This document shows positions 3,576 through 28,814 of a stretch of 32,000 bases of DNA, piece by piece (position 1 is the first letter of the stretch; each line of letters begins with the position of its first letter). This DNA comes from Geobacter sulfurreducens PCA (GTDB lineage Bacteria > Desulfobacterota > Desulfuromonadia > Geobacterales > Geobacteraceae): NCBI RefSeq assembly GCF_000007985.2, contig NC_002939.5, forward strand, positions 3,210,001-3,242,000, read 5' to 3'. The notes beneath the pieces are model-generated. The model was not told where the DNA came from. It ran no database searches and saw only the letters and a program-made list of their open reading frames with translations. Position numbers and translations under genes: made by a program.

Positions 3576-3656
3576 GGCAATGCCTCCGGAGTTATTGGGA
3601 GAACCGTGCGGCTCCCCATTGCACGGCAAAATTATAGTTCTCCTACATTAAGGAAC

Positions 3657-3672
3657 AGCAATTATGGTGCCA
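3657..3672 (-). promoter_or_regulatory. sigma-54 (-24/-12) promoter for the NHL protein / cytochrome operon
   Basis: The minus strand reads TGGCAC-CATAA-TTGCT, matching the consensus TGGCAC-N5-TTGC(A/T). It is intergenic and correctly oriented, about 82 nt upstream of ATG 3575. Confidence 0.65.
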
Positions 3673-8492: not shown

Positions 8493-8534
8493 ATGTCAAT
8501 GTCCTTTCTGATCAGTGATGTGGCGCGCGGCACG

Positions 8535-9368
8535 TTACAGGTAGCACTGCTCCCCGAGACACTCCAGTGCCTTGGGAAGCTCCTCGTCACTGGGAGCGAC
8601 GCCGTGGTAGGACGCCTTGTTCTCGAAGAAGGAAACACCTTTCCCCTTGACGGTGCGGGCAACGATGGCGGTCGGCCGGCCGTTGACCTCCGCGGCCTGG
8701 GCCAGCGCGCCGACGATGGCGGCCATGTCGTGACCGTCGATATCGATGACGTTCCAGCCGAAGGCGCGGAACTTGTCGGTGACCGGCTCCACGTTCATGA
8801 CCTTTTCAACCTCGCCGTCGATCTGGAGGCGGTTCACATCAATGAGGGCACAGAGGTTGTCGAGCTTGAAGTGACCGGCGGCCATGGCCGCTTCCCAGAC
8901 CTGTCCCTCCTGGAGTTCGCCGTCGCCCAACAGGGCGTAGACCCGGCTCGCACTGCCGTCAAGACGCAGGCCGAGGGCCATGCCGTTGGCCATGGAAAGC
9001 CCCTGCCCCAGCGATCCGGTGCAGACCTCGACACCGGGGGTCTGCTTGCTGTCCGGATGTCCCTGCAGGTGGCTGCCGAGACGCCGCAGCATCATCAGAT
9101 CTTCTTTCGGGAAATACCCCGTCGCGGCAAGGGCCACGTAAAGAGCCGGCGCCGCATGTCCCTTGCAGAGGACGAACCGGTCCCGTTCGGACCAGGCCGG
9201 ATTGGTCGGATCATGCTTCATTTCGTGGAAGTAGAGGGCGGTCACCATATCGATGGCAGACAGGGAACCACCGGTATGCCCCGACTGGGACGAATGGAGT
9301 GTCTTGACAATGTCGACCCTGAGCCGCCGGGCCGTCTCTTCGAGTTGCTTGATCTTTTCGCTGTCCAC
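8535..9368 (-). CDS. transketolase, N-terminal (thiamine-diphosphate-binding) subunit
   Basis: 277 aa. GTG start with AAGGA 6-7 nt upstream. Motifs SGHTGGSLSAIDM, CKGHAAPALY and GSLGQGLSMANGMA...LLGDGELQEG (TPP motif). Confidence 0.9.
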   Translation of the reverse strand: MDSEKIKQLEETARRLRVDIVKTLHSSQSGHTGGSLSAIDMVTALYFHEMKHDPTNPAWSERDRFVLCKGHAAPALYVALAATGYFPKEDLMMLRRLGSHLQGHPDSKQTPGVEVCTGSLGQGLSMANGMALGLRLDGSASRVYALLGDGELQEGQVWEAAMAAGHFKLDNLCALIDVNRLQIDGEVEKVMNVEPVTDKFRAFGWNVIDIDGHDMAAIVGALAQAAEVNGRPTAIVARTVKGKGVSFFENKASYHGVAPSDEELPKALECLGEQCYL

Positions 9369-14066: not shown

Positions 14067-14408
14067 ATGGAAAAACAGGAACTGCTCGATAAGACCCGTG
14101 AGACCCTCAGCCCCTTCGAGACGGGAAACATCATCGCGTACATAAAGAGCCTGACGCTCAAAAGCGCCATGGAAAATCCGTGGATCATCAGCATCCTGGC
14201 CATCGTCATCTTTTACGGGGTGTTCAAGAGATCGAAATTCGTCCTGTCGACGGTTTTCGCCATCATCTCCATTACGCTTCTCATCCGGCTCACCCTGCCG
14301 ACGGGAGAGGGAAACGAGCTGACTCTCGGCTCCACCCTTCCCTTTGCCTTCGGCGGCCTCGTGATTGGCGCATTTCTCATCTATTTCATCTTCATCAAAT
14401 CGGAGTAA
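14067..14408 (+). CDS. small integral membrane protein (3 predicted TM)
   Basis: ATG with GGAG 6 nt upstream, 113 aa. Hydrophobic segments WIISILAIVIFYGVF, FVLSTVFAIISITLLI and FAFGGLVIGAFLIYFIFI. Confidence 0.6.
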   Translation: MEKQELLDKTRETLSPFETGNIIAYIKSLTLKSAMENPWIISILAIVIFYGVFKRSKFVLSTVFAIISITLLIRLTLPTGEGNELTLGSTLPFAFGGLVIGAFLIYFIFIKSE

Positions 14409-14415
14409 CATCCCA

Positions 14416-15390
14416 GTGCACCGTGTCGGATTCACAACCACCATCCCGCTGGAGATTGTCCTGGCGGCGGGCATGACTCCCGTTGACCTGAACAATGTCT
14501 TCATCACCAGCCCCCACGCCACCCGGATGATCGAGGAGGCCGAGGTGGACGGCTTCCCCCGCAGCATCTGCGGCTGGATCAAGGGGATCTATGCGGCGGT
14601 GGTCGAGTGCGGCATCCACGAGTTGATCGCCGTGACCGAGGGGGATTGCAGCAACACCAGGGCACTCATGGAGGTGCTGTCGCTGAAGGGGGTGGAGACG
14701 ATCCCCTTTGCCTACCCCCACGACCGGGACCCGGCAGGGCTGCGCTTCGAAATCGAAAAACTCATGCGCCGGTTCGGGGTCGGCTGGGACGCGGTGAAGC
14801 TCTCGCGGGAGCGACTGGGGCGAATTCGGCGCAAAGTCAAGGAGATTGACCGCCTCACCTGGGATGAAAACCGGGTAAGCGGCCAGGAAAACCACTACTT
14901 CCAGGTCTGCACGAGCGACATGAACAGCGACCCGGACCGGTTCGAGGCGGAAGTCGACGCCTTCCTGGAAAAAGCGCGGCAGCGGGAGCCCTTCCGGCAG
15001 CGGCTACGGCTCGCCTACATCGGCGTCCCCCCCATCATGACCGACCTCTACCCTTTTGTGGAAACGCTCGACGCCCGGGTGGTCTTCAACGAAACCCAGC
15101 GCCAGTTCGCCATGCCCTTCGACACGCCGGACCTGGTTGAGCAGTACCGGGCCTATACCTATCCCTACGACATCTTCCACCGCCTCTCGGACATCCTGAT
15201 GGAGCTGGAGCGGCGCAAGGTCGACGCGGTGATCCACTACGTCCAGTCCTTCTGTTTCCGGCAGATCGAAGATATGATCGTTCGCCAGAAGCTCCCCCTG
15301 CCGGTGCTGACCCTGGAAGGTGACAAACCCGGCCCCCTGGATGCACGAACCAGAATCCGGATCGAAGGGTTCCTGGAGATGCTGGCATGA
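14416..15390 (+). CDS. 2-hydroxyacyl-CoA dehydratase family protein (HgdB/BcrC/BadD-like D-component)
   Basis: The ORF runs from 14365. I prefer the GTG at 14416, after the upstream stop, with GGAG about 10 nt upstream. Family-typical sequences are VGFTTTIPLEIVLAAGMTPVDL, ...GDCSN... and ...VIHYVQSFCFRQ....EGD. Its stop overlaps the activase start (ATGA). Confidence 0.85.
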   Translation: MHRVGFTTTIPLEIVLAAGMTPVDLNNVFITSPHATRMIEEAEVDGFPRSICGWIKGIYAAVVECGIHELIAVTEGDCSNTRALMEVLSLKGVETIPFAYPHDRDPAGLRFEIEKLMRRFGVGWDAVKLSRERLGRIRRKVKEIDRLTWDENRVSGQENHYFQVCTSDMNSDPDRFEAEVDAFLEKARQREPFRQRLRLAYIGVPPIMTDLYPFVETLDARVVFNETQRQFAMPFDTPDLVEQYRAYTYPYDIFHRLSDILMELERRKVDAVIHYVQSFCFRQIEDMIVRQKLPLPVLTLEGDKPGPLDARTRIRIEGFLEMLA

Positions 15391-16148
15391 ATCTGGGGAT
15401 CGATCTCGGCAGCAGAAAGGCGAAATTCGCCCTGGTGCAGGAGGGGCACGTGATTCGCCTGGCGGACCACGACACGGTCCCCTTCTACAAGCGCTACGGC
15501 CGACTCGAAGGGGAAGAGCTGGTCCTGGACCTGGCCGCCAGCGGTCTCTTCTCGGCCGAAGAGCTGGAGGGGGCAACGGTGGTGGTCACGGGGTACGGCC
15601 GCAATACCCTGTCGCTGCGGGGCGCACGGGTGGTGTCGGAAATACGGGCCCACGTGGCAGGAGCTCTTGCCCAGACAGGACTCGCCGACTTCACCCTCCT
15701 GGACATGGGAGGGCAGGACACCAAGGTGGCCCTCGTGAAGGCCGGCAAGCTCACCGACTTCGTGATGAACGACAAGTGCGCCGCCTCCAGCGGCCGCTAT
15801 CTGGAAAATATGGCGGCAATCCTGGAGGTATCCCTCGCCGAACTCTCGTCCCACTGGCACGATCCTGTGCCCCTCGATGCCACCTGCGGCATCTTCGGCG
15901 AATCGGAACTCATCGGCCAGATCCTGCGAGGATATCCCGTGGAGCGGCTCTGCGCCGGAGTCAACCAGACCCTGGTAAAGCGGGTGCTCCCCATGCTCAG
16001 GCGCTTTCCGTCCGAGACGGTGGTGCTCACCGGCGGGGTAGCCCACAATCGGGCACTGGTCCGCCTCCTCGAGGAGGCTACCGGGCGTACCCTGGTCGTG
16101 CCGGAGCACCCGCAGCACAACGGCGCCATCGGCTGCGCCAGCATGTAG
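15387..16148 (+). CDS. acyl-CoA dehydratase activase (BadF/BadG/BcrA/BcrD-type ATPase, HgdC-like)
   Basis: 253 aa. MNLGIDLGSRKAKFALV (ASKHA phosphate-1 motif). DMGGQDTK. The NDKCAASSGRYLE and ATCGIFGESE motifs supply the bridging [4Fe-4S] Cys residues. LTGGVAHN. Confidence 0.9.
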   Translation: MNLGIDLGSRKAKFALVQEGHVIRLADHDTVPFYKRYGRLEGEELVLDLAASGLFSAEELEGATVVVTGYGRNTLSLRGARVVSEIRAHVAGALAQTGLADFTLLDMGGQDTKVALVKAGKLTDFVMNDKCAASSGRYLENMAAILEVSLAELSSHWHDPVPLDATCGIFGESELIGQILRGYPVERLCAGVNQTLVKRVLPMLRRFPSETVVLTGGVAHNRALVRLLEEATGRTLVVPEHPQHNGAIGCASM

Positions 16149-17198: not shown

Positions 17199-17594
17199 AT
17201 GGCAATCGGCTGGAGAGATGATCTGCTGACGGGTGTCGTCGAAGTCGACGATCAGCACAAGGAACTGTTCCGGAGGTTCGGTGAACTGTTGACCGCCTGC
17301 AATCAAGGAAAAGGAGGCGAAGAGGTCCTGCGGCTCTTCAACTTCCTGGACGACTACGTGGTGAAGCACTTCGCCGCGGAAGAGCGGATCATGCGCCAGC
17401 ACGGCTACCCCGACTATCTGGAGCACAAGCAGCAGCACCAGGGGTTCACCCGCCGGCTGGAAGAGCTCAAGCGCCAGTTCCGGGACGAAGGAGCGGGGCT
17501 CTCTCTGGTGATCACCACCAACCATGTGATGATCGAGTGGCTATCGCGGCATATCGAGAAAATGGACAAGGAAATCGCGAAGTACGTCAAGTAG
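17199..17594 (+). CDS. hemerythrin-like metal-binding protein (bacteriohemerythrin)
   Basis: 131 aa. W...L.TG...VDDQHKELF, HFAAEERIM, YLEHKQQHQGF and WLSRHIEKMDKE: the classic His/Glu/Asp di-iron ligand spacing. Confidence 0.9.
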   Translation: MAIGWRDDLLTGVVEVDDQHKELFRRFGELLTACNQGKGGEEVLRLFNFLDDYVVKHFAAEERIMRQHGYPDYLEHKQQHQGFTRRLEELKRQFRDEGAGLSLVITTNHVMIEWLSRHIEKMDKEIAKYVK

Positions 17595-17620: not shown

Positions 17621-17654
17621 GGGCCGCCGTGCACGATGCATGGCGGCCCTTTTG
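17621..17654 (+). terminator. rho-independent terminator after the hemerythrin gene (convergent junction)
   Basis: GGGCCGCC - 13-nt loop - GGCGGCCC, followed by TTTTG. It lies between convergent genes ending at 17594 (+) and 17672 (-). Confidence 0.7.
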
Positions 17655-17671: not shown

Positions 17672-18544
17672 TCAGTTTTCGAGATTGACGCGAAAGAAAA
17701 GAACCAGCTTTGCCTTCTCTTCCTTGTTGAGGGGTACCGGTGACATGAGGGCGCCGGGACGGACGCTGCGGGGATTGTCGAGCCAGCGGCCGAGACGTTC
17801 GGGGGTCCAGGGCTCGCCCGGCTTGAAGGGGGTAGGGTAAAACGGGGAGAAGAGCCCGGAAAGGTTCGGCGCGACGGTGCCGGCACCCAGCCCTCCCTCG
17901 CCGGCGGTAAGGAGCCGGTGGCAGCCGCCGCACTTGGTGACGAACAGGTTGTCTTCCTTCGCGCGGACGGCCTCGAAGTGGACGACAAGAGGGACGGCAG
18001 CGGTCCCTTGTGCGGGAGCGGCCCCGGCAAAGGCCATGATGGCATTCACCACATCGGAGGCCCGGCGATCGTCGAACCGGAAGTCGGGCATGAAGAGAAC
18101 CGGCTGCCGGATTGCCACGAAGAGTCTCACCGGGTCATCGCCGACCAGACGGTCCAGGTCGGCGGCCAAGCGCGTCCCCGTTCCTCCCAGGCGATGGCAG
18201 CGGCGGCAGCCGAACCGCTCTGCCAAGCGCTTTCCCTCCTTCACCCGGACGCTGCCGGGAATCGTAAAATGAGACAGTTCCGCCGGCACGAGCCGATAGT
18301 GGGCGATGGCCAGACGCGTGCTTCTGCCGTTACCCCGGTGACAGGAGACGCAGGTGCCCTTTTCCGCATGGTGGGGGCGGTGGCAGGAGCGGCATCCCTC
18401 GCCCGGCGGCGGTCCGACGCAGGCGGACAGAAGAGCGGCGATCAGGATCAGAAGGGCCAGACGAGCGACCAATTCTCCCCCCGGAAGACCATGGCGAGCA
18501 CAGTCAGGGCTACAATGACGGCAAAGGCTCCCAGCGTGAGCCAC
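17672..18544 (-). CDS. tetrahaem c-type cytochrome, probable lipoprotein; cytochrome c subunit of the Rieske/cyt b complex
   Basis: CRSCH, CVSCH, CRRCH and CGGCH. The last two sit in class-I-like contexts with downstream Met. LLSAC is a lipobox-like sequence. The start is uncertain: ATG 18544 overlaps the upstream gene by 97 nt, while TTG 18472 overlaps it by 25 nt. Confidence 0.8.
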   Translation of the reverse strand: MAHAGSLCRHCSPDCARHGLPGGELVARLALLILIAALLSACVGPPPGEGCRSCHRPHHAEKGTCVSCHRGNGRSTRLAIAHYRLVPAELSHFTIPGSVRVKEGKRLAERFGCRRCHRLGGTGTRLAADLDRLVGDDPVRLFVAIRQPVLFMPDFRFDDRRASDVVNAIMAFAGAAPAQGTAAVPLVVHFEAVRAKEDNLFVTKCGGCHRLLTAGEGGLGAGTVAPNLSGLFSPFYPTPFKPGEPWTPERLGRWLDNPRSVRPGALMSPVPLNKEEKAKLVLFFRVNLEN

Positions 18545-18906
18545 GAGGAGGCGCGGTTACCCTCACCGAACCAGACGGCCCGCTCGGGCCGGTGCCTGCC
18601 AAGCCACGGCATGAGCAGGAACCAGAGAGAGAGGGCCACAATGCCCCAGGCGAAGCCGTTGCCGTGGCTCACGACCTCCTGGGTCCAGAGGAGAAACCAG
18701 GCCGATTTGGCCGGGTTTGGCGGGGCGGCCGGGTTGGCGGGGGCCAGGAGCGGCGCGGGGACAACCAGGGCGAGGAGCGCCAGCAGGAGCAGTCCGGCGG
18801 CAAAGGCCCGTTTGACCGGACGGAAAAAGTAGGGAGAACTCCGGACGTATTCCCCGCCACCCCGGGGCCCGCGGCGCAGGTCCCGCTCCGGTTCACCGCA
18901 ATGCAT
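18448..18906 (-). CDS. cytochrome b C-terminal / subunit-IV-like membrane protein (3 TM)
   Basis: Only the 3' part of track ORF 18448..19299 is used. ATG at 18906 lies 27 nt after the cyt b stop. PNPAKSAWFLLWTQEVV resembles the PEWY-type quinol-site motif of subunit IV. Three hydrophobic helices. Confidence 0.7.
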   Translation of the reverse strand: MHCGEPERDLRRGPRGGGEYVRSSPYFFRPVKRAFAAGLLLLALLALVVPAPLLAPANPAAPPNPAKSAWFLLWTQEVVSHGNGFAWGIVALSLWFLLMPWLGRHRPERAVWFGEGNRASSWLTLGAFAVIVALTVLAMVFRGENWSLVWPF

Positions 18907-18932
18907 AGGTTCTCTCACGGCATCCGCTCCTC

Positions 18933-19553
18933 TCACAGATAGGGAAGCAGCCCCTTGGTCTTGCGTACCCGGTAGAAATGGAGAAACGACAGCCCCATGA
19001 TGCCCAACGGAACGATGACCACGTGCAGGGCGTAGAAGCGCAGGAGCGATAGAGACTCTCCCACCCCGTCGGGAACAAGGACGGCCCGGAGCCAGCCGCC
19101 GCCCGGAAAGGTGGCCAGCAACTCCATGCCGGTACGGGTGGCCCAGAAGGCCAGTTGGTCCATGGGGAGCAGATAGCCGGTGTATGCCTCGAACACCGAC
19201 AGTCCCAGGAGTCCCACCCCCACCACCCAGGTCAGTTCGCGGGGCGGCCGGAAGGCACCGGTGAGCACGACCCGCAGGATGTGGAGGAACATCAGACAAA
19301 GGAACCCGTGGGAGGCAAGCCGGTGAAGCGCCCGCAGGTACTTTCCCCCCACAACCGTCGACTCCAGGAACAGAATCGAATCAAAGGCCCGGTCGGGGGT
19401 CGGCTGGTAGTAGAACAGCAGCAGTACCCCGGACACGATCAGGGCGAAGAATGCCGTAAAGGCGAGTCCGCCCAGACAGAATGTGTAGCTGAACCGCAGG
19501 TTCTCCCGCAGGACCACCCGGGGGAAGAGATGTTTGGCGAATTCCTTGATCAT
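18933..19553 (-). CDS. cytochrome b6-like protein (N-terminal four-helix, dihaem b)
   Basis: 206 aa. Conserved His pairs in helices B and D (RALHRLASHGF.., FYALHVVIVPLGIMGLSFLHF). Its ATG overlaps the Rieske stop (ATGA). Confidence 0.9.
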   Translation of the reverse strand: MIKEFAKHLFPRVVLRENLRFSYTFCLGGLAFTAFFALIVSGVLLLFYYQPTPDRAFDSILFLESTVVGGKYLRALHRLASHGFLCLMFLHILRVVLTGAFRPPRELTWVVGVGLLGLSVFEAYTGYLLPMDQLAFWATRTGMELLATFPGGGWLRAVLVPDGVGESLSLLRFYALHVVIVPLGIMGLSFLHFYRVRKTKGLLPYL

Positions 19554-19945
19554 CCGATGACAATCTCCACCCGCTCGCCCCGGTCCTCCACCCGATGGCG
19601 GGCCAGGGGACGGTCGGCGGGACCTTTGGCAACGTTTCCCTTCAGGTCGAAGCGGCTGCCGTGACAGGGACAGACAATCTCCGACGGCGTGACGGTTACC
19701 GTGCAGCCCAGATGGGTGCAGGTGAGGTCAAGGGCATAGAGCGTATCCCCATCCCTCATGACCGCCAGGTGCCGTTCCTTGAACACAAGGGCGCCCCGTG
19801 GGGGGATCGATGCCTTGGCAACGGTGAATCGCTCTCCCCCGCCCCGCCCCGCGGGAACGAGAAAGCGCCACGCCGCCGCCAGCGAGGCCGTGAATGCGGC
19901 TAACGCCGCGATGAACCGCCGGCGTCCCCGGTCAAATCCCGCCAT
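19550..19945 (-). CDS. Rieske [2Fe-2S] protein with twin-arginine signal
   Basis: Internal ATG at 19945 of track ORF 19550..20470. MAGFDRGRRRFIAALAAF is a Tat motif. The cluster boxes CTHLGC and CPCHGS are present. 131 aa. Confidence 0.9.
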   Translation of the reverse strand: MAGFDRGRRRFIAALAAFTASLAAAWRFLVPAGRGGGERFTVAKASIPPRGALVFKERHLAVMRDGDTLYALDLTCTHLGCTVTVTPSEIVCPCHGSRFDLKGNVAKGPADRPLARHRVEDRGERVEIVIG

Positions 19946-21165
19946 CGTTCCAGATACCCTTTCGTGTATTCGGGGGTCCGCACCCCCATGCGCCGCACCC
20001 GCTCCGGCTCCATGAACGTACCGTTGGCAATCCGCTGGCCGGTGCGGTCCCAGAAGGAATCGAGAGAAAGGCCATCGGCCCGGGTCCGGTAGATCCGCTC
20101 GTGGGGCGGTTCCAGCAGAAAGCGCCGCGGGTTGTCGTGACAGCCGTCGCACATGACCGTTTCGCGCCGGATGGTGTGAGGGGCGAAGGTCTTCCAGCGG
20201 GCTGCCAGGAGCCGGTTCTCCTGCCCCACTACCCGTTCGTTGCGGAAATCCGAATGGTAAAGGATGAACTGGGGCCGGGCCGGGCTCACCCGCCCCGCTT
20301 CGTTGAGCGCGAGGGGGGGGGCGTCCTGCCGCTTGAGATAGGCACTCTTTACCCAGTCGTCCTGACGGGTGACCACCTGGAAGCGGGACTGGAGCCGGGG
20401 GCTGTTGGTGAAGCGCAGCCAGAAGGTACCGTACTCCTGGGGTGCCCACGCGGCATGGCAGGCAACGCATTCGAGCCGGTCCTGGTGGGCGGCGATGCGG
20501 TGTTCAACCACCCGCGGATCCGGCGTGTGACAGTCGGTGCACCTCTTTGCGGTCCGCTTGCCGGCAGCCAGGCTCGCCATGGAGTGGCAGTCGGCGCACC
20601 CCATCCCTGCCTCGGCATGGACGTCGGGCAGCATGGGGAGGAAGGTCTCGCCGTTGGCCAGCTCACCCCGCTGGTAGCGCAGGGCATCCTCCCGGGGCGC
20701 CCGGCCGTGGTAGTCGGTGCCCACGAAGTAGCCCCGGTGGCAGGAGAGACACTGGGCATCCCGGGGGCGGGCCAAGGCATGGCCGCCGCCGGGATGGCAG
20801 TCGAGGCAGCCCGTTACGTGGCAGCCGCCGCACTGGTTGCGGAAGAATGCTCCGTCGGCTCGCCCCAGGGTATCGGCCACGAAGCGCCGTTCCGCGCTCC
20901 GGGTGGTCATGGGGTGGTCGAAGAGACGGTCGTATCCACGGTGGCAAGCCACGCACCGGGCGGCGCGGTCGGCCACGAGTGCCGGGTTGCGCACAGTGGC
21001 CCGGTCGTCGCCGTGGCAGGGGGAACAGCCGATGCCTGCATGGGGGCCGGTAAGGACATCCCGATGGCAGACGCGGCAATTTTCGCCCGTGGCGGCGTCA
21101 GCGGGCCACGGCGCGACCGGCGCTGCCAGTAAGCAGGCGGCGATGCAGAGCATCATCCAGCGCAC
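19900..21165 (-). CDS. decahaem c-type cytochrome (periplasmic)
   Basis: 421 aa. GTG start (ATGs also at 21156 and 21153). Signal peptide ..MMLCIAACLLAAPVAPWPADA. Ten CxxCH motifs: CRVCH, CSPCH, CVACH, CGGCH, CLDCH, CLSCH, CADCH, CTDCH, CVACH, CDGCH. Confidence 0.85.
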   Translation of the reverse strand: MRWMMLCIAACLLAAPVAPWPADAATGENCRVCHRDVLTGPHAGIGCSPCHGDDRATVRNPALVADRAARCVACHRGYDRLFDHPMTTRSAERRFVADTLGRADGAFFRNQCGGCHVTGCLDCHPGGGHALARPRDAQCLSCHRGYFVGTDYHGRAPREDALRYQRGELANGETFLPMLPDVHAEAGMGCADCHSMASLAAGKRTAKRCTDCHTPDPRVVEHRIAAHQDRLECVACHAAWAPQEYGTFWLRFTNSPRLQSRFQVVTRQDDWVKSAYLKRQDAPPLALNEAGRVSPARPQFILYHSDFRNERVVGQENRLLAARWKTFAPHTIRRETVMCDGCHDNPRRFLLEPPHERIYRTRADGLSLDSFWDRTGQRIANGTFMEPERVRRMGVRTPEYTKGYLERWRDLTGDAGGSSRR

Positions 21166-22969
21166 GATAGTCGAGCTCCTTGCGGTAGATGGGATCGTCG
21201 GCCCGGGTGTGGCAGACGATGCAAAGGTTTGCCCGCCAAACCCGTTTTGCCTCCGTGTCGTTCAGGGGGCGTGAGTTCTCGCGGGTGATGGCGGAGAATG
21301 CCCGTACCAGACCACCCTCCATGGTCTGGAAACCGTCCAGGGGCTTCGCTTCGTTCTTGGTACAACGCAATGTGCCATCGATCCGCCCTTTTCCCGTCAC
21401 ATGCTGGCCAAAGCCGAGGAAGGCGGGGTTGGCGTGGCATTCGCCGCAGCCGATGGCCCGTTCGCCGGTGTTATGGGAGTAGAACGGCGCGAACCGGAGC
21501 TGCTTTTTCCCCTTGAAGGTAGAGACGTAGCCCTCCCGGGACAGGGTGCCGTCCGGCTCCACCACGGTGACGAACGTCTGGCAGCCGGGGGTGACCGGCG
21601 CAATGCCCCCGCGCTGGTTCAGAGCCAGGGGAAAGGGATAGAGCATCCGGTAATCCTCGGTTTCCGTGAAGAGCCCGGGGGTGTCCATTCCCTTGATGAA
21701 GTCGGTGCCGGTGCGGCCCTTGTCGTATTTCGTATGACAGCCGTAGCATTGGGGGACCGCCCGGGAATGGCAGGCGGTGCATTCGAGCCGGTCGTGTCCG
21801 ACCACGGTGTGGGCCGGGGAGCCGGTAATGACCTTGCTGGTGAATACCCTGCCGCTCCGCTTGCCGAGCACCGCAACCCTGCCATCCTTCACGAAGACAT
21901 TTGAGTAGGGGCGCCCCTTGGCGGTAACGATCATGCGCATGCCCGGCCGCATCTGCACGGGGTAGCGGGCCGACTCCCGCACCGCCTCCTCGTTCTCCCG
22001 CACGATCTCCCGCCAGCGGGGCGGCGAAGTTGCACTGCCGTGGCAATCCTCGCAGCGAATCTCCACCTGGTGGTAGAGGTTCTCGTAGGCATAACCGTCA
22101 CCCATGATGTCGCGGGAGGTGTGGCAGTCGATGCACTCCATCCCCCGGGCGTGGTGAATGTCGGGAGGGATGCTCGTCACGTTCCGGTTGCCGCTGGTGA
22201 GCTGGGGGCCCGGGAAGCCTCCCCTGGTCGGCACGAGACCGTTGTTGCCGTCGTTCAACCCCAGGTAGGAGAGAGCGATGCGGCCGCTGCGGTTGTGGCA
22301 GCGGAAGCAGACGTCGTTGCCGGGGAGCCCTTCCATCCGGTGGCTGGACGCGGCGGGCCCACGCAGTCGCATGGTCAGGTCGCTGCCCTCATAGGCGGAA
22401 TCGGCATTGCGGGGAAAGTGGCAGGCCGCGCAGCCGGAGCCGTGCCCCACGCCCCAGGCATAGCGGTTTTCGATCCCCACGTGGCAGAGGGAGCAGAACT
22501 TGCGGTAGAGCTCCCCCGAGAGGTTGTTCAGTTCGGCCACGCCGTTGACCCTGACCCGCTTCCCCTCTGCGTCGTAAAGGTCGTCCTGCCGTGCTCCGTA
22601 GCGCCGGCCATCCTCCCCTTCCCAGGTAAGCTGGATATTCCTGATGATCCCCGTATTGGTATACATGAGTCCCGAGCGGACCCGGCCCAGCTGATAGGGG
22701 TGGCAGGCACCGCAACTCTTTTCCCAGACAGCCGGGTCCGAGGGGTTCCGCGGGGCGAACATGGTCCGGTGGGCGTCCTCTTTGCTCCGGGCCCGGCCGT
22801 CGCCGCCGTGGCAGGAGACACAGGAGGGATGGGCCGGTGAGGCGTGCTCGATCTTCCCGTGGCAGGAGAGACACGAGGCGTTCTCTCCCCCGCTGCTGCC
22901 GCACCCGGCAGCACTAAGGAACATAACGGCGACCGCCAGCATGAGAACGACGTCGGAAATCCTGTTCAT
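21098..22969 (-). CDS. dodecahaem c-type cytochrome, lipoprotein
   Basis: Internal ATG at 22969 of track ORF 21098..23071 gives MNRISDVVLMLAVAVMFLSAAGC (lipobox). Twelve CxxCH motifs: CLSCH, CVSCH, CGACH, CSLCH, CAACH, CFRCH, CIDCH, CEDCH, CTACH, CYGCH, CGECH, CIVCH. Confidence 0.85.
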   Translation of the reverse strand: MNRISDVVLMLAVAVMFLSAAGCGSSGGENASCLSCHGKIEHASPAHPSCVSCHGGDGRARSKEDAHRTMFAPRNPSDPAVWEKSCGACHPYQLGRVRSGLMYTNTGIIRNIQLTWEGEDGRRYGARQDDLYDAEGKRVRVNGVAELNNLSGELYRKFCSLCHVGIENRYAWGVGHGSGCAACHFPRNADSAYEGSDLTMRLRGPAASSHRMEGLPGNDVCFRCHNRSGRIALSYLGLNDGNNGLVPTRGGFPGPQLTSGNRNVTSIPPDIHHARGMECIDCHTSRDIMGDGYAYENLYHQVEIRCEDCHGSATSPPRWREIVRENEEAVRESARYPVQMRPGMRMIVTAKGRPYSNVFVKDGRVAVLGKRSGRVFTSKVITGSPAHTVVGHDRLECTACHSRAVPQCYGCHTKYDKGRTGTDFIKGMDTPGLFTETEDYRMLYPFPLALNQRGGIAPVTPGCQTFVTVVEPDGTLSREGYVSTFKGKKQLRFAPFYSHNTGERAIGCGECHANPAFLGFGQHVTGKGRIDGTLRCTKNEAKPLDGFQTMEGGLVRAFSAITRENSRPLNDTEAKRVWRANLCIVCHTRADDPIYRKELDYRALDDALHRRLLTGSAGRAVAR

Positions 22970-23032
22970 GGCATGGTTCGCTCGATGACGCACGGGGGCA
23001 ATGGTACCACAGAATGCGGGCAAAGGTCCCTG

Positions 23033-23066
23033 CAAAAAAGGGCCGGCAGCGGTTCGGCTGCCGGCC
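23033..23066 (-). terminator. rho-independent terminator after the pentahaem cytochrome gene
   Basis: Minus strand reads GGCCGGCAGC-CGAACC-GCTGCCGGCC (10-bp perfect stem) followed by CTTTTTTG. It lies 29 nt after the TAG at 23095-23097. Confidence 0.75.
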
Positions 23067-23094
23067 ATCACATGAAGGAGGTGCTGCGTGGGTG

Positions 23095-24447
23095 CTACTT
23101 GCCCTTGGCGCTGATGCTCACCTTCTGGGTGAACTCATGCCAGAGGAACGGATCGGAATTCATTGAACCGAAGGGGAGATACCAGAGTTTCACCTCCACT
23201 TCCAGATCGTGGGCCAGGGTCTTGCGAACCTTCTTCCCGTCCTCCACCACATCCTCGGTGGGGAAGAGGATATCGAAGCGCTCGTGGATCTTCTTGCCCG
23301 GCGGCAGACCCGTATCCTCGATCATACCGCTTTTCTCATAGGGGCCGCGCCCCATCCGGTCACCCCGGGCCAGCTGCTGGGGCACCGGCATGTAGATCTT
23401 TTCCTGATTGAACACTTCTTCGCCGTCTTTTGTCTTTGCAATGACCGACAGAACCAGTCGGTTGGGGGTCGGTCAGCCATCGGGGATCGAGTGGCCCGCG
23501 TGATTGGTCATCTCGACCTTCACCACTGCCTTGGGCGTCACCAGCGCCCCGTCCCGCCAGTGATAGCCATAGGCCTCGGCCTTGAACTCAACGGCGGCCT
23601 TGGCCATGCCCGGGTCACGGTAGCTCTGCATGTTGTGCCCGAGCTTGCTCTTCTTCATGTGGCATTCCTGGCAGTTTTCCCGCCCGCCCTCGGCCTTGTA
23701 GGCCCAGAGGTAGCTCGCATAGCTGGTGCAGCACTGGGTCGGGTTATCCAATTCCAGGTTCGGCCCCAAGCCGTGGCATTGGCCGCACTGGATGGACTCT
23801 GACATGATCGGACTGACCTTCATCGTGGGGAATGCCGCAGAGGGGTGTTCCCCTTCCTTGGAGCCGTAGACTACCCCGGCCTGGGGATAGCCGTCGGTCC
23901 ACTTGTGGGTGATGGCGTTACGGTTATGGCAAACGAGGCAATTGATGTTGAGGCTCTTGAGCTTGTCGGCCTCTTCAACCGCCTTTGCCGAATCCTTTTT
24001 CCTCAGTGCATCCTGCCAGCTGCCGATGGTGGAGATGATCTCCTTGGCCACCGAGTCCTCGGCGTCGGCCAGTTGGGGGAGATGGCACTTGGCGCATCCC
24101 ATCAGGTGCTCAACTTTCACGTCCGACGGGCTTTTCACCCCCGAATATTCCCATTCCATGAGGCCGTTGACCACAGCAGTCATGAAGGTGGCGGCAGTCC
24201 GGCCGGTACCGAAGATTGAGCGGGCATGGATCGACTGCTCCCATTCATCGTGGACTTCCTGGTGACACTCGATGCAGGAGCTGGAATCATACATCTTTGC
24301 CAACTCGGCCATGGTCTTTGCCTTGCCGCTCTTGGCAACGATCGTCTCCTGCCAGCCGATGCCCGCCTTTTCGGCAAAAACCGGTGCGGCGGCACAGAGC
24401 GCAAGCGCTGCGGCAGCAAGGGTCAGCCATGCGGTTTTGTGCTTCAT
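23095..24447 (-). CDS. pentahaem c-type cytochrome with C-terminal beta-rich domain; contains one in-frame TGA (23475-23473): candidate selenocysteine codon, or else a disrupted gene
   Basis: Track ORFs 23473..24447 and 23095..23415 are in the same frame, and the TGA is the only stop between them. Signal peptide MKHKTAWLTLAAAALALCAAAPVFA. Haem motifs CIECH, CAKCH, CLVCH, CGQCH and CQECH. The reading continues ..MTNHAGHSIPDG-TGA-PTPNRLVLSVIAKTKDGEEVFNQEK.. There is no RBS before the track's GTG at 23415. A terminator follows only the second ORF. Confidence 0.65.
23443..23475 (-). promoter_or_regulatory. 33-nt hairpin starting at the in-frame UGA (SECIS-like candidate)
   Basis: Minus strand: UGACCGAC-CCC-AACC-GACU-GGUU-CU-GUCGGUCA. 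This gives an 8-bp lower stem that includes the UGA, an internal loop, a 4-bp upper stem, and an apical tetraloop beginning with G. Confidence 0.45.
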
Positions 24448-24510
24448 GGTCTACTCCTTTTTTGTGCCATACATAAATAACCGTATTGCAATAAACGAAT
24501 TTCAGCCCAT

Positions 24511-24543
24511 AAAAAGAAACCTCCCCGCCCCAGGACGGGGAGG
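24511..24543 (-). terminator. rho-independent terminator after the small secreted protein gene
   Basis: Minus strand reads CCTCCCCG-TCCTGGGG-CGGGGAGG followed by TTTCTTTTT. It lies 17 nt after the TAG at 24560-24562. Confidence 0.7.
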
Positions 24544-24559
24544 CGGTCATAACAACCGA

Positions 24560-24874
24560 CTAGCAGCCCTGGAGAGCGTCGCCGGCGGATTCGGAGATGG
24601 TCATGGAAGAGTCCGTCTTGATCTTGGCAGCCTTGGCCTTGCCGAACTTGAGGACGACTTCGTCGCCTTTCACCTCGACAATGGTCGGCATACCGCCGCT
24701 GGCCTGAACATGGGCGCCCTTCTTGGCCCAGGCGGGTACTTTCTCGGCCTTGACGGTAACCTTCTCGCCATCAACCTTGACGACCTTCCCCGAGAAGGAG
24801 CCGGCGGCAAAGGCGAATGCCGCCATGGAAAGGGCCACGAGAGCCGCCGCGATCGACATCATGATCTTCTTCAT
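24560..24874 (-). CDS. small secreted protein ending in a C-terminal cysteine (..DALQGC-stop)
   Basis: ATG with AGGAGG 8 nt upstream. Signal peptide MKKIMMSIAAALVALSMAAFAFA. The mature part is about 80 aa, Lys/Val-rich and beta-like (KVVKVDGEKVTVKAEK..IVEVKGDEVVLKFGK). The only Cys is the last residue. Confidence 0.75.
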   Translation of the reverse strand: MKKIMMSIAAALVALSMAAFAFAAGSFSGKVVKVDGEKVTVKAEKVPAWAKKGAHVQASGGMPTIVEVKGDEVVLKFGKAKAAKIKTDSSMTISESAGDALQGC

Positions 24875-24913
24875 TGTTCTTACCTCCTGCGTGTGGTTGT
24901 GCTGCGCTCAGCC

Positions 24914-26134
24914 CTAGAAAAGGAGCTGGAGCTGGGTGATGAACGTGGTGAAGTCCTCGCTCTTGACTCCGTTGTACGTGCCTTCCTTGTCGAAGTCGGT
25001 CTTGCTGATCTCGGCCGTCAGTTTCAGGTTCTGGCCCCAGATGTAGTAGTTGGCGCCGACGCCGTACCAGTTGATGTCCTGGTCCACCACATTGTTGAGG
25101 CTGGCGAAGCTCCACCGCTCGTAGCGGCCGAAGATCTGGAGCGGGAAGTTGGGGAGCATGTAACCGGCCTTGGCATACCAGCCGTTTTTCTCGCCGTTGA
25201 GGCCAATGGCACCGCTGTCCACATTGGTGGATACGGTATATGCGTCATCCATGCTGAAGTCGGCGTAGGCGGCAGAAGCGGTGATGGTGCCGAAGCCTTC
25301 GACCGGATACTCGAAATAACCGTCAACAGTCCAGGCGGTGTAATCCTTGGAGTCGGACTGAGTGGCGGCATTGCCATAAGCGACGTTCGGCTCGTACTGA
25401 ACCCCGGCGCCCACGGTCAGGACCTGCTTCTCGCCCATGTAGGTACCCTTGTAGCCGTAATCCTTCTCGGGATCGAGCAGTGTCACGTGAGCGCGGGCCG
25501 TATAGCGGAAGTTCGAATCAGGCGAAGAATAGCCGTTGGCATCCCGGTCGCCGGCCTTGCGGCCTTCCATCGCGTCGAGGCGATACTGGAAGACGTCGTT
25601 GAACAGGTTACCCCAGACCGCCACACCCACGTCGCGGGTCGAAACATAGGGGGCGCGGATAAAGAGGGACCGGTCCAGGGTCAGAGGCATTTCGCACGCT
25701 TCGAGATTCTCACGGGTCAGGTTGTGCTTGAATTTACCCACATTGACCCGGAACCCATCGTGGAATTTGAAACGCATAACGGCGTCGAGAAGCTGGAACT
25801 CCGTGTCGGCGCTGTTGTCGCCGACTCCGAGGGTACCCACGTTGGGATCTTCGGTGAATTCGGTCTGAACATAAAGGCTCAGCATATCGCCGTACTTGCC
25901 CATAAAGGCGAGACGGTTGCGGCGGAAGTTGAAGTTGGTGGTGGTATCGTCACCGTTGGCGCCGGAGCCGTTGTCGCGGATCGACATCTGGAACTGGCCC
26001 TTGTAGTCGATCTGGAGGGCGCCCTGGTCTTCGGGGCCAAAGGTGATCCGGGGACCGGCGAACGCCGTGCCGGCCAGGAGGGCCGTACCGAGGGCGACGC
26101 CGGAGATGGTCGATATCTTGCGCATATTCATCAT
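24914..26134 (-). CDS. outer-membrane beta-barrel porin, OprO/OprP (phosphate-selective porin O and P)-like
   Basis: 406 aa. Signal peptide ..ALGTALLAGTAFA. Alternating amphipathic strands. FNFRRNRLAFMG and LLDAVMRFKF are typical of porin O_P. C-terminal aromatic signature ..ITQLQLLF. Confidence 0.8.
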   Translation of the reverse strand: MMNMRKISTISGVALGTALLAGTAFAGPRITFGPEDQGALQIDYKGQFQMSIRDNGSGANGDDTTTNFNFRRNRLAFMGKYGDMLSLYVQTEFTEDPNVGTLGVGDNSADTEFQLLDAVMRFKFHDGFRVNVGKFKHNLTRENLEACEMPLTLDRSLFIRAPYVSTRDVGVAVWGNLFNDVFQYRLDAMEGRKAGDRDANGYSSPDSNFRYTARAHVTLLDPEKDYGYKGTYMGEKQVLTVGAGVQYEPNVAYGNAATQSDSKDYTAWTVDGYFEYPVEGFGTITASAAYADFSMDDAYTVSTNVDSGAIGLNGEKNGWYAKAGYMLPNFPLQIFGRYERWSFASLNNVVDQDINWYGVGANYYIWGQNLKLTAEISKTDFDKEGTYNGVKSEDFTTFITQLQLLF

Positions 26135-26161
26135 GCATTCGCTCCTTTTAATTGAGAAGTC

Positions 26162-26181
26162 CCCCGCCCCGAGGGGCGGGG
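26162..26181 (-). other. GC-rich intercistronic hairpin between the rhodanese and porin genes
   Basis: CCCCGCCCC-GA-GGGGCGGGG (realistically a 7-bp stem with a 6-nt loop). On the minus strand it is followed by GACTTCTCAATT. Possibly a partial attenuator or stability element. Confidence 0.4.
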
Positions 26182-26201
26182 ATCAAGAACGTCGCTCACT
26201 G

Positions 26202-27608
26202 CTAGCAGCCACCGCCACCGGTCGAGCCGCCACCACCGGTCGTACCGGTAACGGTGCTGCGGTAGGCCCTGTCGGCATCTTCAATCTGGTTGCCTTGCGC
26301 GAAGCTCGGCTCAACCCCGAAGACCCGGGACGTGTAGTTGATAATAGGCCGCTGGGCAAGATTCGTGGTGCTGATGGTCCGCCCAACGTTCCAGGTCAGG
26401 TTGTCGGTCAGGAGGGTGGTGTCCCAGATAGACCCGACGGCCAGCTTGCCGCCGGCATTGACCGTAGCGCCGGTCGTATCGGTGGCGGTATGGCTCGACG
26501 AGGCCATCAGGTTCCATTGACCCAGCGAGCCGTCATACCATTTGACGTCAACGTTGGAGTTGTAGTAGGCGATGCCGTCAAGTGCGAAATAGGCCACGGA
26601 TGCAGCGTTGCCGGCCCGACAGAAGACGATGAAGGTCTTTGCAGAATCGCGGTTCGCATCCCCCAGGGTGGTAACACCGTCTCCGGCCACTGCGGCACTG
26701 ATGTCGGTTTGCAGGGTTGCCGCGTCTTTGAAATAGAGAGTGCTTGCAGGCGAAACCACGTTGGCGTACGGGAAGCGGTACGAGCCCTTGATGGCGCCGT
26801 CGAACGGAGTATAGAAGTTGCCGTCGAGGAGGTCCGTTGTCGAGGACACCGTGCCGGGACGAATCGTGTCAAGAATAAAGACTTTGTTTGCGTTACCGGC
26901 AACGACTCCCTGAACATAGGCGATCATCTCGGGCAGGGAGACGCGCATGTCGGTGTTTACCCGGCTCGTGCCGTTCTGGGCCACACCGTAAGTTGACTTC
27001 TGGATCGTCGGCACGGCCGTGGTCAGCGAATAACCCGCGGCAACCCAGGCGGGGTTTCCGCCTTGCAGAACCTTAAGACGGGCTTTGGGGAAGCCCCAGT
27101 AACGGAACGTCGTGTACGCCCGCGCCACGTTGATGGTGTTGTTGGCGTTATTGGTGAGCACGATGGTCGTATTTCCGTCGATGCCCGCGTTTTGAATCAG
27201 AGCGTCCATGGTTGCGCCGGTGCAGACCATGTTGCCCGTGACACTCAGGGGCCCTTCAGCACGGGTATTGTCCTGGAAAGCATTCGCTCCGGCAGAAATC
27301 AATTGTGCCCCGGGGATGTGTCCGACGGTGTTGTATTTGTTGGAACCATCGGTTTCATTGCTGGAGACGTCGAGAATCACAACGCGGTCGTAGCTTCCGC
27401 TCGCCTTGTTCACCAGTCCTGCGTCAATCCATGCCTTGAGTTGCTCTGCTGTTACCAGGGCATTGGCCGTCTGCATCGTGACGGCAGATGTGGCCGGCTG
27501 ATCATAGCCCCCGCCACCGCAGCCCCACAGAGTGAGCAGCGTCAGCGCAACAACGCCGAGCATGCTCGCCAGCATGACACGTCCCTTTCTCCATGCCTGT
27601 TTCGCCAT
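26202..27608 (-). CDS. tandem-rhodanese-domain lipoprotein (sulfurtransferase-like) with Gly-rich C-terminal tail ending in Cys
   Basis: ATG with AAAGGAGG 4 nt upstream. Lipobox LTLWGC. The first rhodanese-like domain lacks a catalytic Cys (TTIVLTNNANN). The second has the active-site loop FIVFCRAGNAAS. The C-terminus is TVTGTTGGGGSTGGGGC-stop. Confidence 0.8.
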   Translation of the reverse strand: MAKQAWRKGRVMLASMLGVVALTLLTLWGCGGGGYDQPATSAVTMQTANALVTAEQLKAWIDAGLVNKASGSYDRVVILDVSSNETDGSNKYNTVGHIPGAQLISAGANAFQDNTRAEGPLSVTGNMVCTGATMDALIQNAGIDGNTTIVLTNNANNTINVARAYTTFRYWGFPKARLKVLQGGNPAWVAAGYSLTTAVPTIQKSTYGVAQNGTSRVNTDMRVSLPEMIAYVQGVVAGNANKVFILDTIRPGTVSSTTDLLDGNFYTPFDGAIKGSYRFPYANVVSPASTLYFKDAATLQTDISAAVAGDGVTTLGDANRDSAKTFIVFCRAGNAASVAYFALDGIAYYNSNVDVKWYDGSLGQWNLMASSSHTATDTTGATVNAGGKLAVGSIWDTTLLTDNLTWNVGRTISTTNLAQRPIINYTSRVFGVEPSFAQGNQIEDADRAYRSTVTGTTGGGGSTGGGGC

Positions 27609-27653
27609 ACAACCTCCTTTAACTGGTTATTGCCCCTCCCCGAAGGAAACGGC

Positions 27654-27678
27654 GCCTCGCACGCACGCGGTGCGAGGC
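27654..27678 (-). other. stem-loop in the predicted 5' UTR of the rhodanese operon
   Basis: GCCTCGCAC-GCACGCG-GTGCGAGGC: a 9-bp perfect stem between the sigma-54 promoter (27705-27720) and the ATG at 27608. Confidence 0.4.
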
Positions 27679-27704
27679 AATACAACGACTATCCCGTCAG
27701 CTAT

Positions 27705-27720
27705 TGCAACAAAAGTGCCA
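27705..27720 (-). promoter_or_regulatory. sigma-54 (-24/-12) promoter for the rhodanese-porin-small protein operon
   Basis: Minus strand reads TGGCAC-TTTTG-TTGCA, a perfect match to TGGCAC-N5-TTGC(A/T). It is intergenic and correctly oriented, about 97 nt upstream of ATG 27608. Confidence 0.7.
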
Positions 27721-27817
27721 CACAATTAGAGCCAAATAATGCCGCACAAAGCAACCGCTTATCATGACTTTCTTTTTTCATCTTGAACTATATCGTCGTT
27801 TTTGTAATAACTTGAAG

Positions 27818-27830
27818 TGAAACATTTTCA
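27818..27830. promoter_or_regulatory. T-N11-A inverted repeat (candidate LysR-type regulator box)
   Basis: TGAAA-CAT-TTTCA, a 5-3-5 palindrome. It lies about 50 nt upstream of the LysR ATG and about 100 nt upstream of the divergent sigma-54 promoter. Confidence 0.35.
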
Positions 27831-27878
27831 TAACAGCCATGCGCAACACGCATAACATCCATAACTCACTATAAAACA

Positions 27879-28814
27879 ATGGATTTGATCCTTCTTAATA
27901 CTTTTATAAAGGTCGCGACCATCGGCAGCATCTCAAAGGCTGCAGGGCTGCTTTGCGTCACCCAGTCCGCGGTTTCGCGACGCATCAAGTTGCTGGAAGA
28001 ACACTACGGCCGCCCCCTCCTGGAGCGTACCGGAACCACGCTGAGACCCACCCCTGCCGGAAAAATGCTGATCGAAAAGGCCAAGTCGATCCTTGACATC
28101 GAGCGCCAAATTCTCGACAGCCTTGGTGTCAAGGAAACGAGGCAGAAGATATCCTTCTGCTGCACCCCGTCCTTCGGCATCGGCAGCCTTCCGGCAATCC
28201 TCGACTCCTTTCTGGCCGACAAAGGGGAGAAAACAGATCTCAAGTTCGTTTTCGCCATGCCCGAGGAGGCTCTTGACGGGATCAGAAGCGGCAGGTTCGA
28301 TCTCGCCCTCATCGAGCACTGCGACGATCTTGACCTGAACGGCTACCGGACGTATCCGCTCCCCCCCGACGAGATGATCTTCATCAGCGCCCCCGCGCGC
28401 GGCATCGACATGCCTGCACCGGACATCGACCGGTTGCTGGGGGAGCGGCTCTACCTCAAGAACGAAACCGGTTGCGCCAAACGTTTTCTCGACCGGAACA
28501 TGCGCTCCATCGGGCGCGACGGCAACGAGTTCGTCAACACCGTATACTTTGACGACTGCCCGTTCATCCTCAGCCAGGTACGCGCCGGCAACGGCATCGC
28601 CTTTGTCTCGGCAACGATCGTTCAGGCCGAGCTTCGCGCCGGCACACTGCGCGCACACCGGATCGCCGGATTCGACCCGTTCCGTCCCCGCACCATTGTA
28701 TTCAGCCCGCACATGGAGTGTTCTCCCGCTATTCACGCCTTCACTGAAACGCTCTTTGCAGCCCACGACATCCCCTCCTCCGCTGCCCTGTTCTCCTCCC
28801 GGCGCACCCGGTAA
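27879..28814 (+). CDS. LysR-family transcriptional regulator
   Basis: 311 aa. N-terminal w[42 protein letters not shown], then a LysR substrate-binding fold. Divergent from the rhodanese operon. Confidence 0.9.

Follow-up and report, generated by a model that had tools for sequence, protein, structure and literature searches.

The extHIJKLMNOPQS cluster of Geobacter sulfurreducens PCA and its probable role in sulfur and polysulfide respiration

Relation to described systems

In Wolinella succinogenes and Thermus, the PsrABC reductase converts polysulfide to sulfide in the periplasm during the respiration of elemental sulfur (S0), assisted by Sud, a rhodanese-type periplasmic sulfur-binding protein (see also the discussion of PMC13510729). 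The extHIJKLMNOPQS gene cluster (GSU2940-2930) of Geobacter sulfurreducens PCA is very probably a periplasmic machine serving the same S0 and polysulfide respiration, and also reducing selenite. This cluster is contained in a stretch of 32,000 nucleotides (NC_002939.5, positions 3,210,001 to 3,242,000), called here the window and numbered from its first letter. In this comparison, the helper role of Sud would be taken by ExtH and ExtJ. The catalytic and electron-donating parts are different: the window encodes no subunit binding the molybdenum-bis(pyranopterin guanine dinucleotide) cofactor, no PsrB ferredoxin and no PsrC anchor, catalysis relies on a selenocysteine (Sec) together with a haem ligated by histidine and cysteine, and the putative quinol module is a Rieske/cytochrome b complex. 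Indeed, the Molybdopterin and Molydop_binding domains of Pfam were found neither in the cluster proteins nor in the other large open reading frames (ORFs) of the 32-kb window. The absence of any Psr-, Phs- or Ttr-type molybdopterin subunit, claimed previously on the basis of the letters alone (hereafter the sequence-only reading), thus holds for the large ORFs of the whole window, and a Psr-type reductase was rejected on this ground.

The catalytic chemistry can be compared with that of SoxAX, in which a His/Cys-ligated c-haem acts on sulfur held at the cysteine of the flexible C-terminal arm of SoxY (GGCGG-COOH). The pentahaem protein ExtKL has been described as MccSep by Mihara et al. (2026; PMC13510729; PDB 9wt8-9wtc), who liken its chemistry to SoxAX and TsdA operating in reverse. 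ExtJ and ExtH resemble SoxY in that both end in an invariant Gly-Cys-COOH, borne by a flexible tail. ExtJ is an analogue at most and not a member of this family, having no SoxY match in Pfam or NCBIfam and its structural model retrieving from the PDB, with Foldseek, generic small beta-barrels only (F1-ATPase N-terminal domain, riboflavin synthase; E >1e-3). In contrast with the Sox system, the direction of the ext reaction is reductive and the loading of sulfur on ExtJ and ExtH is only predicted.

The membrane-bound part of the cluster is comparable to cytochrome b6f and to the Firmicute-type Rieske-cytochrome b complexes, since it is split between a b6-like ExtP and a subunit-IV-like ExtQ. 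ExtP displays the b6f-like spacing of 13/14 between its haem histidines (His77/91 and His177/192) and a cysteine at the xCLGG position of haem ci (Cys26 in FCLGG, conserved in 36 of 38 homologues), and the Rieske protein ExtO (CTHLGC at residue 76, CPCH at residue 92) is likewise exported by twin-arginine translocation (Tat), with an RRRF signal. This complex departs from b6f by its c-type subunit, a tetrahaem lipoprotein, by the additional 10- and 12-haem cytochromes, and perhaps by the PEWY position of ExtQ, where the sequence, judged by eye, seems to read SAWF (...PAKSAWFLLW). Finally, the clustering of a porin gene with genes for a lipoprotein and for a multihaem cytochrome of the periplasm recalls the Pcc (OmaB-OmbB-OmcB) and MtrCAB conduits, and extHIJKL was indeed treated as a putative outer-membrane conduit by Jimenez Otero et al. 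(2018; PMC6148476). What sets the ext cluster apart from these conduits is a rhodanese as lipoprotein, a porin of the Porin_O_P type and a cytochrome that is a soluble enzyme. A Pcc-type conduit was rejected as the primary function, given that ExtH contains no CxxCH motif, that ExtI is a Porin_O_P protein and that ExtKL is soluble.

The ten genes are co-oriented on the minus strand from 27608 to 17672, and the ORF map gives them in the order H-I-J-KL-M-N-O-P-Q-S. Their products carry a total of 31 CxxCH motifs (5 in ExtKL, 12 in ExtM, 10 in ExtN and 4 in ExtS). This gene order, the 31 haem motifs and a divergent LysR gene had all been announced by the sequence-only reading and were found where it had placed them. 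The cluster proteins were scanned with Pfam, which also recognised multihaem cytochrome domains, and with the equivalog models of the NCBIfam "selenite/tellurite reduction operon", using the curated cut-offs. The resulting assignments are listed below with NCBIfam scores and, after the slash, the corresponding cut-offs.

26202-27608, minus strand: extH (GSU2940), outer-membrane rhodanese-like lipoprotein (NF040901, 577/200 bits; Pfam Rhodanese)
24914-26134, minus strand: extI (GSU2939), anion-type outer-membrane porin (NF040900, 705/150 bits; Pfam Porin_O_P)
24560-24874, minus strand: extJ (GSU2938), small secreted beta-barrel protein with an invariant C-terminal Gly-Cys (NF040942, 83/52.5 bits)
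23095-24447, minus strand: extKL, or mccsep (GSU2937-2936), pentahaem selenocysteine polysulfide reductase (NF040886, 622/250 bits)
21098-22969, minus strand: extM (GSU2935, CbcM), 12-haem lipoprotein cytochrome c (NF040943, 1073/800 bits; 12 CxxCH, lipobox LSAAGC)
19900-21165, minus strand: extN (GSU2934), 10-haem cytochrome c (NF040967, 701/200 bits; 10 CxxCH)
19550-19945, minus strand: extO (GSU2933), Rieske 2Fe-2S protein with a Tat signal (Pfam Rieske, E = 5.6e-13)
18933-19553, minus strand: extP (GSU2932), cytochrome b6-type subunit (Pfam Cytochrome_B, E = 4.6e-34)
18448-18906, minus strand: extQ (GSU3620), subunit-IV-like membrane protein (NF040970, 191/150 bits; weak Cytochrom_B_C, E = 0.007)
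17672-18544, minus strand: extS (GSU2930), tetrahaem lipoprotein cytochrome c (NF040971, 371/100 bits; 4 CxxCH)

These assignments are not due to chance, since for eight of the ten proteins there is a match to a curated hidden Markov model of their own (E from 1e-23 to 0). ExtP scores 220 bits against NF040969, below the cut-off of 290, yet this model is its best match. The model NF040968 ("FeS_ExtO", iron-sulfur cluster-binding subunit) gives 704 bits on the 10-haem ExtN and no match on the Rieske protein ExtO. It seems to be mis-built, apparently from ExtN sequences, and the true ExtO is therefore left with no working equivalog. The genes from extM to extS overlap or abut, and the true start of extS probably lies near 18470. 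The called overlaps reach 68 nt between extM and extN (21098-21165) and 46 nt between extN and extO (19900-19945), against 4 nt (ATGA) between extO and extP; the unusual length of the first two suggests either translational coupling or mis-set start codons.

This locus is the cluster named extHIJKLMNOPQS by Jahan et al. (2018; PMC5877670), who list an identical set of ten products (with cytochromes of 5, 12, 10 and 4 haems, a Rieske protein and a cytochrome b among them) and report the conservation of the cluster in the Geobacteraceae. Gene order, protein sizes and sigma-54 promoter coordinates are all the same as in the published PCA cluster and MccSep, with no difference detected, and the identical ExtI protein is present on three public contigs. 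The system was described, named, curated and structurally solved before this analysis, and the hypothesis of the sequence-only reading proves correct in outline, supported in its core, inferential at its periphery, and not new. What is novel here consists of modest additions, namely the synteny of extKL with the block encoding ExtMNOPQS (Cbc6), the persistence of an ExtJ-like gene, the Gly-Cys protein ends and the internal hairpins.

MccSep and its selenocysteine codon

The core of the sulfur-respiration reading is carried by ExtKL. Its translation is the same as that of MccSep in PDB entries 9wt8/9wt9 over all 450 residues except the Sec position, which was entered as Cys in the comparison and is Ala in the aligned U325A chain. 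In addition, the published Edman N-terminus EKAGIGWQETIVAKS and the Sec-containing peptide VEMTNHAGHSIPDGUPTPNR are both found verbatim in the translation of the window. The five CxxCH motifs start at C58, C118, C170, C221 and C259, and the protein keeps the haem-2 ligands His122 and Cys239, both invariant in an alignment of 18 sequences, as well as U325 and the catalytic residues Arg83 and Lys372.

The properties of this protein have been established by Mihara et al. MccSep is a soluble periplasmic homotetramer with five c-haems per subunit, and its crystal structure reveals a substrate channel and a haem 2 ligated by His122 and Cys239, next to which stands Sec325, whose identity was confirmed by mass spectrometry. 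In methyl viologen-linked assays, the enzyme cleaves polysulfide reductively to sulfide and also reduces selenite, while being inactive on thiosulfate, tetrathionate, sulfite, nitrite and others. The Vmax on selenite is 59 umol/min/mg; for polysulfide, the K0.5 is five-fold lower and the Vmax/K0.5 seven-fold higher. Expression of mccsep is induced by S0, the gene is required for S0 respiration and for growth on S0, in which the deletion mutant is defective, and members of the family occur in organisms that reduce or disproportionate sulfur (all PMC13510729). These experiments bear out the claim that the pentahaem cytochrome is a catalytic, Sec-dependent chalcogen reductase working without molybdopterin, and include the very assay with reduced methyl viologen by which the sequence-only reading proposed to check it. 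The loss of a chalcogen-related function upon gene deletion, also anticipated, is documented for the mccsep mutant on S0 and for the extI mutant, whose reduction of selenite and tellurite is impaired (PMC5877670). The combination of Sec with a His/Cys-ligated haem, in the absence of molybdenum, constitutes a new class of enzyme, published in 2026 for exactly this locus, and the cluster thereby holds the long-sought sulfur reductase of the S0 respiration of the Desulfuromonas/Geobacter type.

The features of the extKL messenger that relate to Sec insertion are the following, SECIS standing for selenocysteine insertion sequence.

23473-23475, minus strand: UGA codon for Sec325, an in-frame TGA in extKL
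23437-23477, minus strand: SECIS-like hairpin beginning at the UGA (-16.9 kcal/mol, z = -2.35)

The TGA lies six residues after the H-A-G-H motif and the reading frame runs on for 125 more codons. A possible Sec beside HxxH had been suspected from this arrangement, and the mass spectrometry of the identical protein proves it; the TGA itself, together with the divergent LysR gene, had already been noted by Jimenez Otero et al. The relatives of ExtKL occupy 80 genome loci among the matches listed, which do not include the genome of G. sulfurreducens PCA itself, and all 80 display a TGA at the Sec position, in the context PDG-U-PTPNR(L/V). The nucleotides 3' of the UGA are near-invariant across the Desulfuromonadales loci. 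An RNAalifold analysis of the SECIS-like hairpin retained a core helix of 4 bp only, with G:U/G:C changes and zero compensatory pairs, because the sequences are too conserved to provide covariation support. Nine full-length ExtKL homologues of about 450 residues and about 50% identity (P0065, P0070, P0084, P0089, P0091, P0096, P0099, P0100 and P0115, one of them labelled Gemmatimonadota) keep the five haem motifs and Cys239, and have neither Sec nor Cys at position 325 (PDS-[TGVI]-S...). Judging from their alignment, they may represent a sister subfamily with a different chemistry.

Synteny, transcription signals and putative sulfur carriers

The synteny analysis was conducted on the 47 of the 80 loci that offer 4 kb or more of sequence upstream of extKL and 6.5 kb or more downstream of it. 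At 25 of them, extH, extI and all of extM-S are found beside extKL in the same order, and four others carry at least five of the six extM-S genes. In most complete loci, extM begins a few hundred bp after extKL. The complete arrangement is also present on contigs from Acidobacteriota (Vicinamibacteria), a distribution which suggests that the ext cluster may have been transferred as a block between lineages. At 15 of the 47 loci, mostly from Nitrospirota or corresponding to extra Desulfuromonas copies, extKL is found with no H, I or M-S gene within 10 kb; the Nitrospirota loci of this kind have no consistent neighbours beyond housekeeping genes and spurious antisense ORFs. MccSep is therefore not strictly dependent on this bc complex, and the co-occurrence of the ten genes expected by the sequence-only reading stood for the 25 loci with a full set of H, I and M-S but not for the 15 where these genes are missing. 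These comparative results bear on two gaps in the knowledge of MccSep, its electron donor and the route by which its substrate is delivered.

Regarding substrate delivery, ExtH is a lipoprotein (lipobox LWGC, in which Cys30 is the lipobox cysteine) that shares both its active-site Cys330 and its C-terminal Cys468 with 33 of 33 homologues. All 33, down to about 30% identity, retain a Gly/Ser-rich tail with Cys as its last residue, and all end in Gly-Cys. ExtJ, presented so far merely as a small protein with no assigned function (PMC5877670), has 104 residues and ends in ...LQGC, with Gly103 and Cys104 invariant in 33 of 33 database homologues. The persistence of this gene was underestimated by tblastn, which missed ExtJ in 21 loci; in each of them, the gap holds an ORF of 74-120 residues with a signal peptide and the same ...GC end. 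A C-terminal Gly-Cys is found in the ORFs of the extI-extKL gap at 38 of 39 loci. In the AlphaFold2 model of ExtJ, the beta-barrel core is predicted with a local distance difference test score (pLDDT) of about 90 and the tail, residues 99-104, is disordered (pLDDT <50). The Gly-Cys ends of ExtH and ExtJ, together with this predicted disordered tail, support the idea that these two proteins may act as thiol carriers.

An ExtJ-like ORF ending in ..GC also stands directly upstream of extKL at 10 loci devoid of other ext genes, mostly of the Desulfuromonas type, and at 8 such loci a DUF3373 porin is found upstream in place of ExtI. The locus L049 (7588-9519) and seven others follow this pattern, with the genes for a DUF3373 outer-membrane protein (Pfam E = 2.8e-125) and an ExtJ-like protein ahead of an extra copy of extKL. 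As far as sequence can tell, the association of a porin, a candidate carrier and MccSep at these Desulfuromonas-type loci amounts to a minimal module.

The signals and the regulatory gene that delimit possible transcription units of the cluster are given here.

27705-27720, minus strand: sigma-54 (-24/-12) promoter of extH, TGGCACTTTTGTTGCA, an exact consensus match
27653-27679, minus strand: GC-rich hairpin in the extH 5' leader (terminator-like scan, 10 bp)
24519-24544, minus strand: terminator-like hairpin in the extJ/extKL gap (11-bp stem, then a T-rich tail)
23041-23066, minus strand: terminator-like hairpin in the extKL/extM gap (10-bp stem with 9 GC pairs, then CTTTTTT)
27879-28814, plus strand: divergent LysR-family regulator, GSU2941 (Pfam HTH_1 and LysR_substrate)

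The sigma-54 promoter postulated ahead of the cluster was recovered as an exact consensus 97 nt 5' of the ATG of extH. The window holds only one other exact match, for a total of about 0.03 expected by chance according to our own estimate, and the extH site had been predicted as "Promoter 13" of operon GSU2940-2938, at 3237711-3237727 (-) of the PCA genome (Leang 2009, supplementary file 4). A site of this kind upstream of extH was found at 3 of 31 loci from other taxa and is missing in the remaining 28, and is therefore a lineage-specific feature rather than a defining one. The only enhancer-binding protein encoded in the window (3938-5311) is located beside its own sigma-54 promoter, 22 kb away from that of extH. 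To our knowledge, the LysR protein is not an activator or enhancer-binding protein of sigma-54 promoters. Its divergent gene is kept in 12 of 28 complete loci among the listed matches (tblastn), and a LysR gene was also reported upstream of homologous clusters (PMC6148476). The leader hairpin is situated in the approximately 85-nt 5' leader that separates the extH start codon from the sigma-54 promoter, and could serve for attenuation or as a stabiliser. When the whole window was scanned against Rfam at the gathering thresholds, no family matched, so that neither this hairpin nor the SECIS-like one belongs to a curated family.

Electron supply, alternative roles and neighbouring genes

In the proposed mechanism, the sulfide made by MccSep would dissolve external S0 as polysulfide, which would enter through ExtI. 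ExtH would capture sulfane sulfur at the outer membrane by means of Cys330 and of its Gly-rich tail ending in Cys468, and the flexible Gly-Cys tail of ExtJ would pass this sulfur to the substrate channel of MccSep. Electrons would flow from the menaquinol pool to the Rieske/cytochrome b complex ExtOPQ-S, then to the 10-haem ExtN and 12-haem ExtM and finally to MccSep, the transfer from ExtOPQ-S to MccSep probably needing the proton-motive force or a low-potential coupling. A stricter version, in which the actual substrate of MccSep is sulfane sulfur borne by the Gly-Cys-COOH of ExtJ after loading by ExtH, and in which ExtOPQS, ExtN and ExtM form a dedicated, energy-coupled donor, is put forward as a tentative proposal that we hold to be rather less probable than its failure. 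If true, the ExtH/ExtJ relay would be the reductive mirror image of the swinging-arm system of SoxY and SoxAX.

Several observations weigh against sulfur respiration by the cluster as a single machine. The transfer of electrons from menaquinol (about -75 mV) to the polysulfide/HS- couple (about -260 mV) is uphill and is made worse by a high-potential Rieske chain. A simple downhill wire is therefore unlikely, and if ExtOPQS is the donor, an input of proton-motive force or an unconventional route is required. The link between ExtMNOPQS and MccSep is a putative one, and the fold of ExtJ resembles that of no known sulfur carrier in the Foldseek search of the PDB. The extKL genes at 15 of the 47 loci, with no H, I or M-S genes nearby, must be added to these points, as well as the terminator-like hairpins located 3' of extJ and of extKL and the 2009 operon prediction (Leang 2009), which covers GSU2940-2938 only, so that a common transcript of the ten genes stands as a supposition. 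For the authors of the MccSep study themselves, the donor of electrons is "unidentified" and the way in which polysulfide enters is "unclear" (PMC13510729), and a review of September 2026 still places Cbc6/CbcMNOPQR, that is ExtMNOPQS, among the complexes whose "specific physiological roles remain unknown". Furthermore, the genetic studies of the Bond laboratory assign to extHIJKL partial roles in reducing Fe(III) citrate and Mn(IV) (PMC6148476).

Part of this evidence would be accommodated by two adjacent and independent units, in which extHIJKL encodes a sulfur and selenite reductase module with a promoter and terminators of its own, extMNOPQS a separately expressed bc complex that serves other acceptors or runs in reverse, and MccSep receives its electrons from the general periplasmic pool of PpcA-type trihaem cytochromes. 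This arrangement is possible, although we consider it the weaker bet. The strong hairpin between extKL and extM, the restriction of the predicted operon to GSU2940-2938, the extKL loci lacking M-S and the thermodynamic mismatch between a Rieske chain and a low-potential acceptor would all be explained in this way, and so would the kanamycin cassettes inserted in extI (PMC5877670) or mccsep (PMC13510729), which left the genes downstream free of polar effects. The tight synteny retained at 25 of the 47 loci, in Desulfuromonadales and in Acidobacteriota loci that were apparently acquired horizontally, nevertheless argues for a functional association of the two halves, as do the preliminary defects in selenite reduction observed when the downstream cytochrome genes were disrupted (PMC5877670).

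Sulfur respiration has also to be weighed against roles directed at other acceptors. It is improbable that extHIJKL primarily forms an outer-membrane conduit to extracellular metals or electrodes, with Cbc6 serving extracellular electron transfer as a general quinol:cytochrome c oxidoreductase. A strain deleted for extHIJKL does reduce Fe(III) citrate at only about 65% of the wild-type level (PMC6148476), and the cluster is reported to be more strongly expressed on Fe(III) oxide and to be under the control of Fur (PMC5877670). However, it contains no extracellular cytochrome, its porin ExtI is an anion porin of the Porin_O_P type whose deletion causes no defect on Fe(III) citrate (PMC5877670), and ExtKL is a soluble periplasmic Sec enzyme with a substrate channel, inactive on many acceptors (PMC13510729). 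The metal phenotypes could moreover be indirect, for example through the shuttling of sulfide or of cysteine-derived sulfur. The transfer of electrons from menaquinol to selenite is exergonic, which would suit a Rieske/cytochrome b donor. A primary function in the detoxification or respiration of selenite and tellurite, with sulfur reduction as a secondary activity, would agree with this energetics, with the family names of NCBIfam, with the phenotype of the extI mutant and with the reduction of selenite by MccSep. We regard it all the same as improbable: the kinetic constants favour polysulfide, S0 induces expression and the mutant grows poorly on S0, the family is spread among sulfur reducers and disproportionators, and selenite is not known to support the growth of G. 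sulfurreducens (PMC13510729).

Apart from the ext cluster, the window contains a second exact sigma-54 consensus, TGGCACCATAATTGCT (3657-3672, minus strand). It is flanked on one side by the NtrC-type response regulator at 3938-5311 (minus strand) with a HAMP histidine kinase at 5422-6912 (minus strand), and on the other by a 916-residue protein with NHL, Big and Glucodextran_B repeats (879-3629, minus strand). This region probably corresponds to a separate surface protein under two-component and sigma-54 control. The housekeeping neighbours comprise a MetH-type methionine synthase of 804 residues lacking the activation domain (9934-12348, minus strand), a transketolase whose N-terminal and C-terminal halves are separate genes (7548-9368, minus strand) and a dehydratase-activase pair of the HGD-D/BcrAD type (14365-16148, plus strand). 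At the distal end of the cluster, a hemerythrin-domain gene (17199-17594, plus strand) converges on extS, and a strong 13-bp hairpin (17621-17649) lies between the two stop codons. With no T-run on its minus side, this hairpin is probably the terminator of the plus-strand hemerythrin gene.

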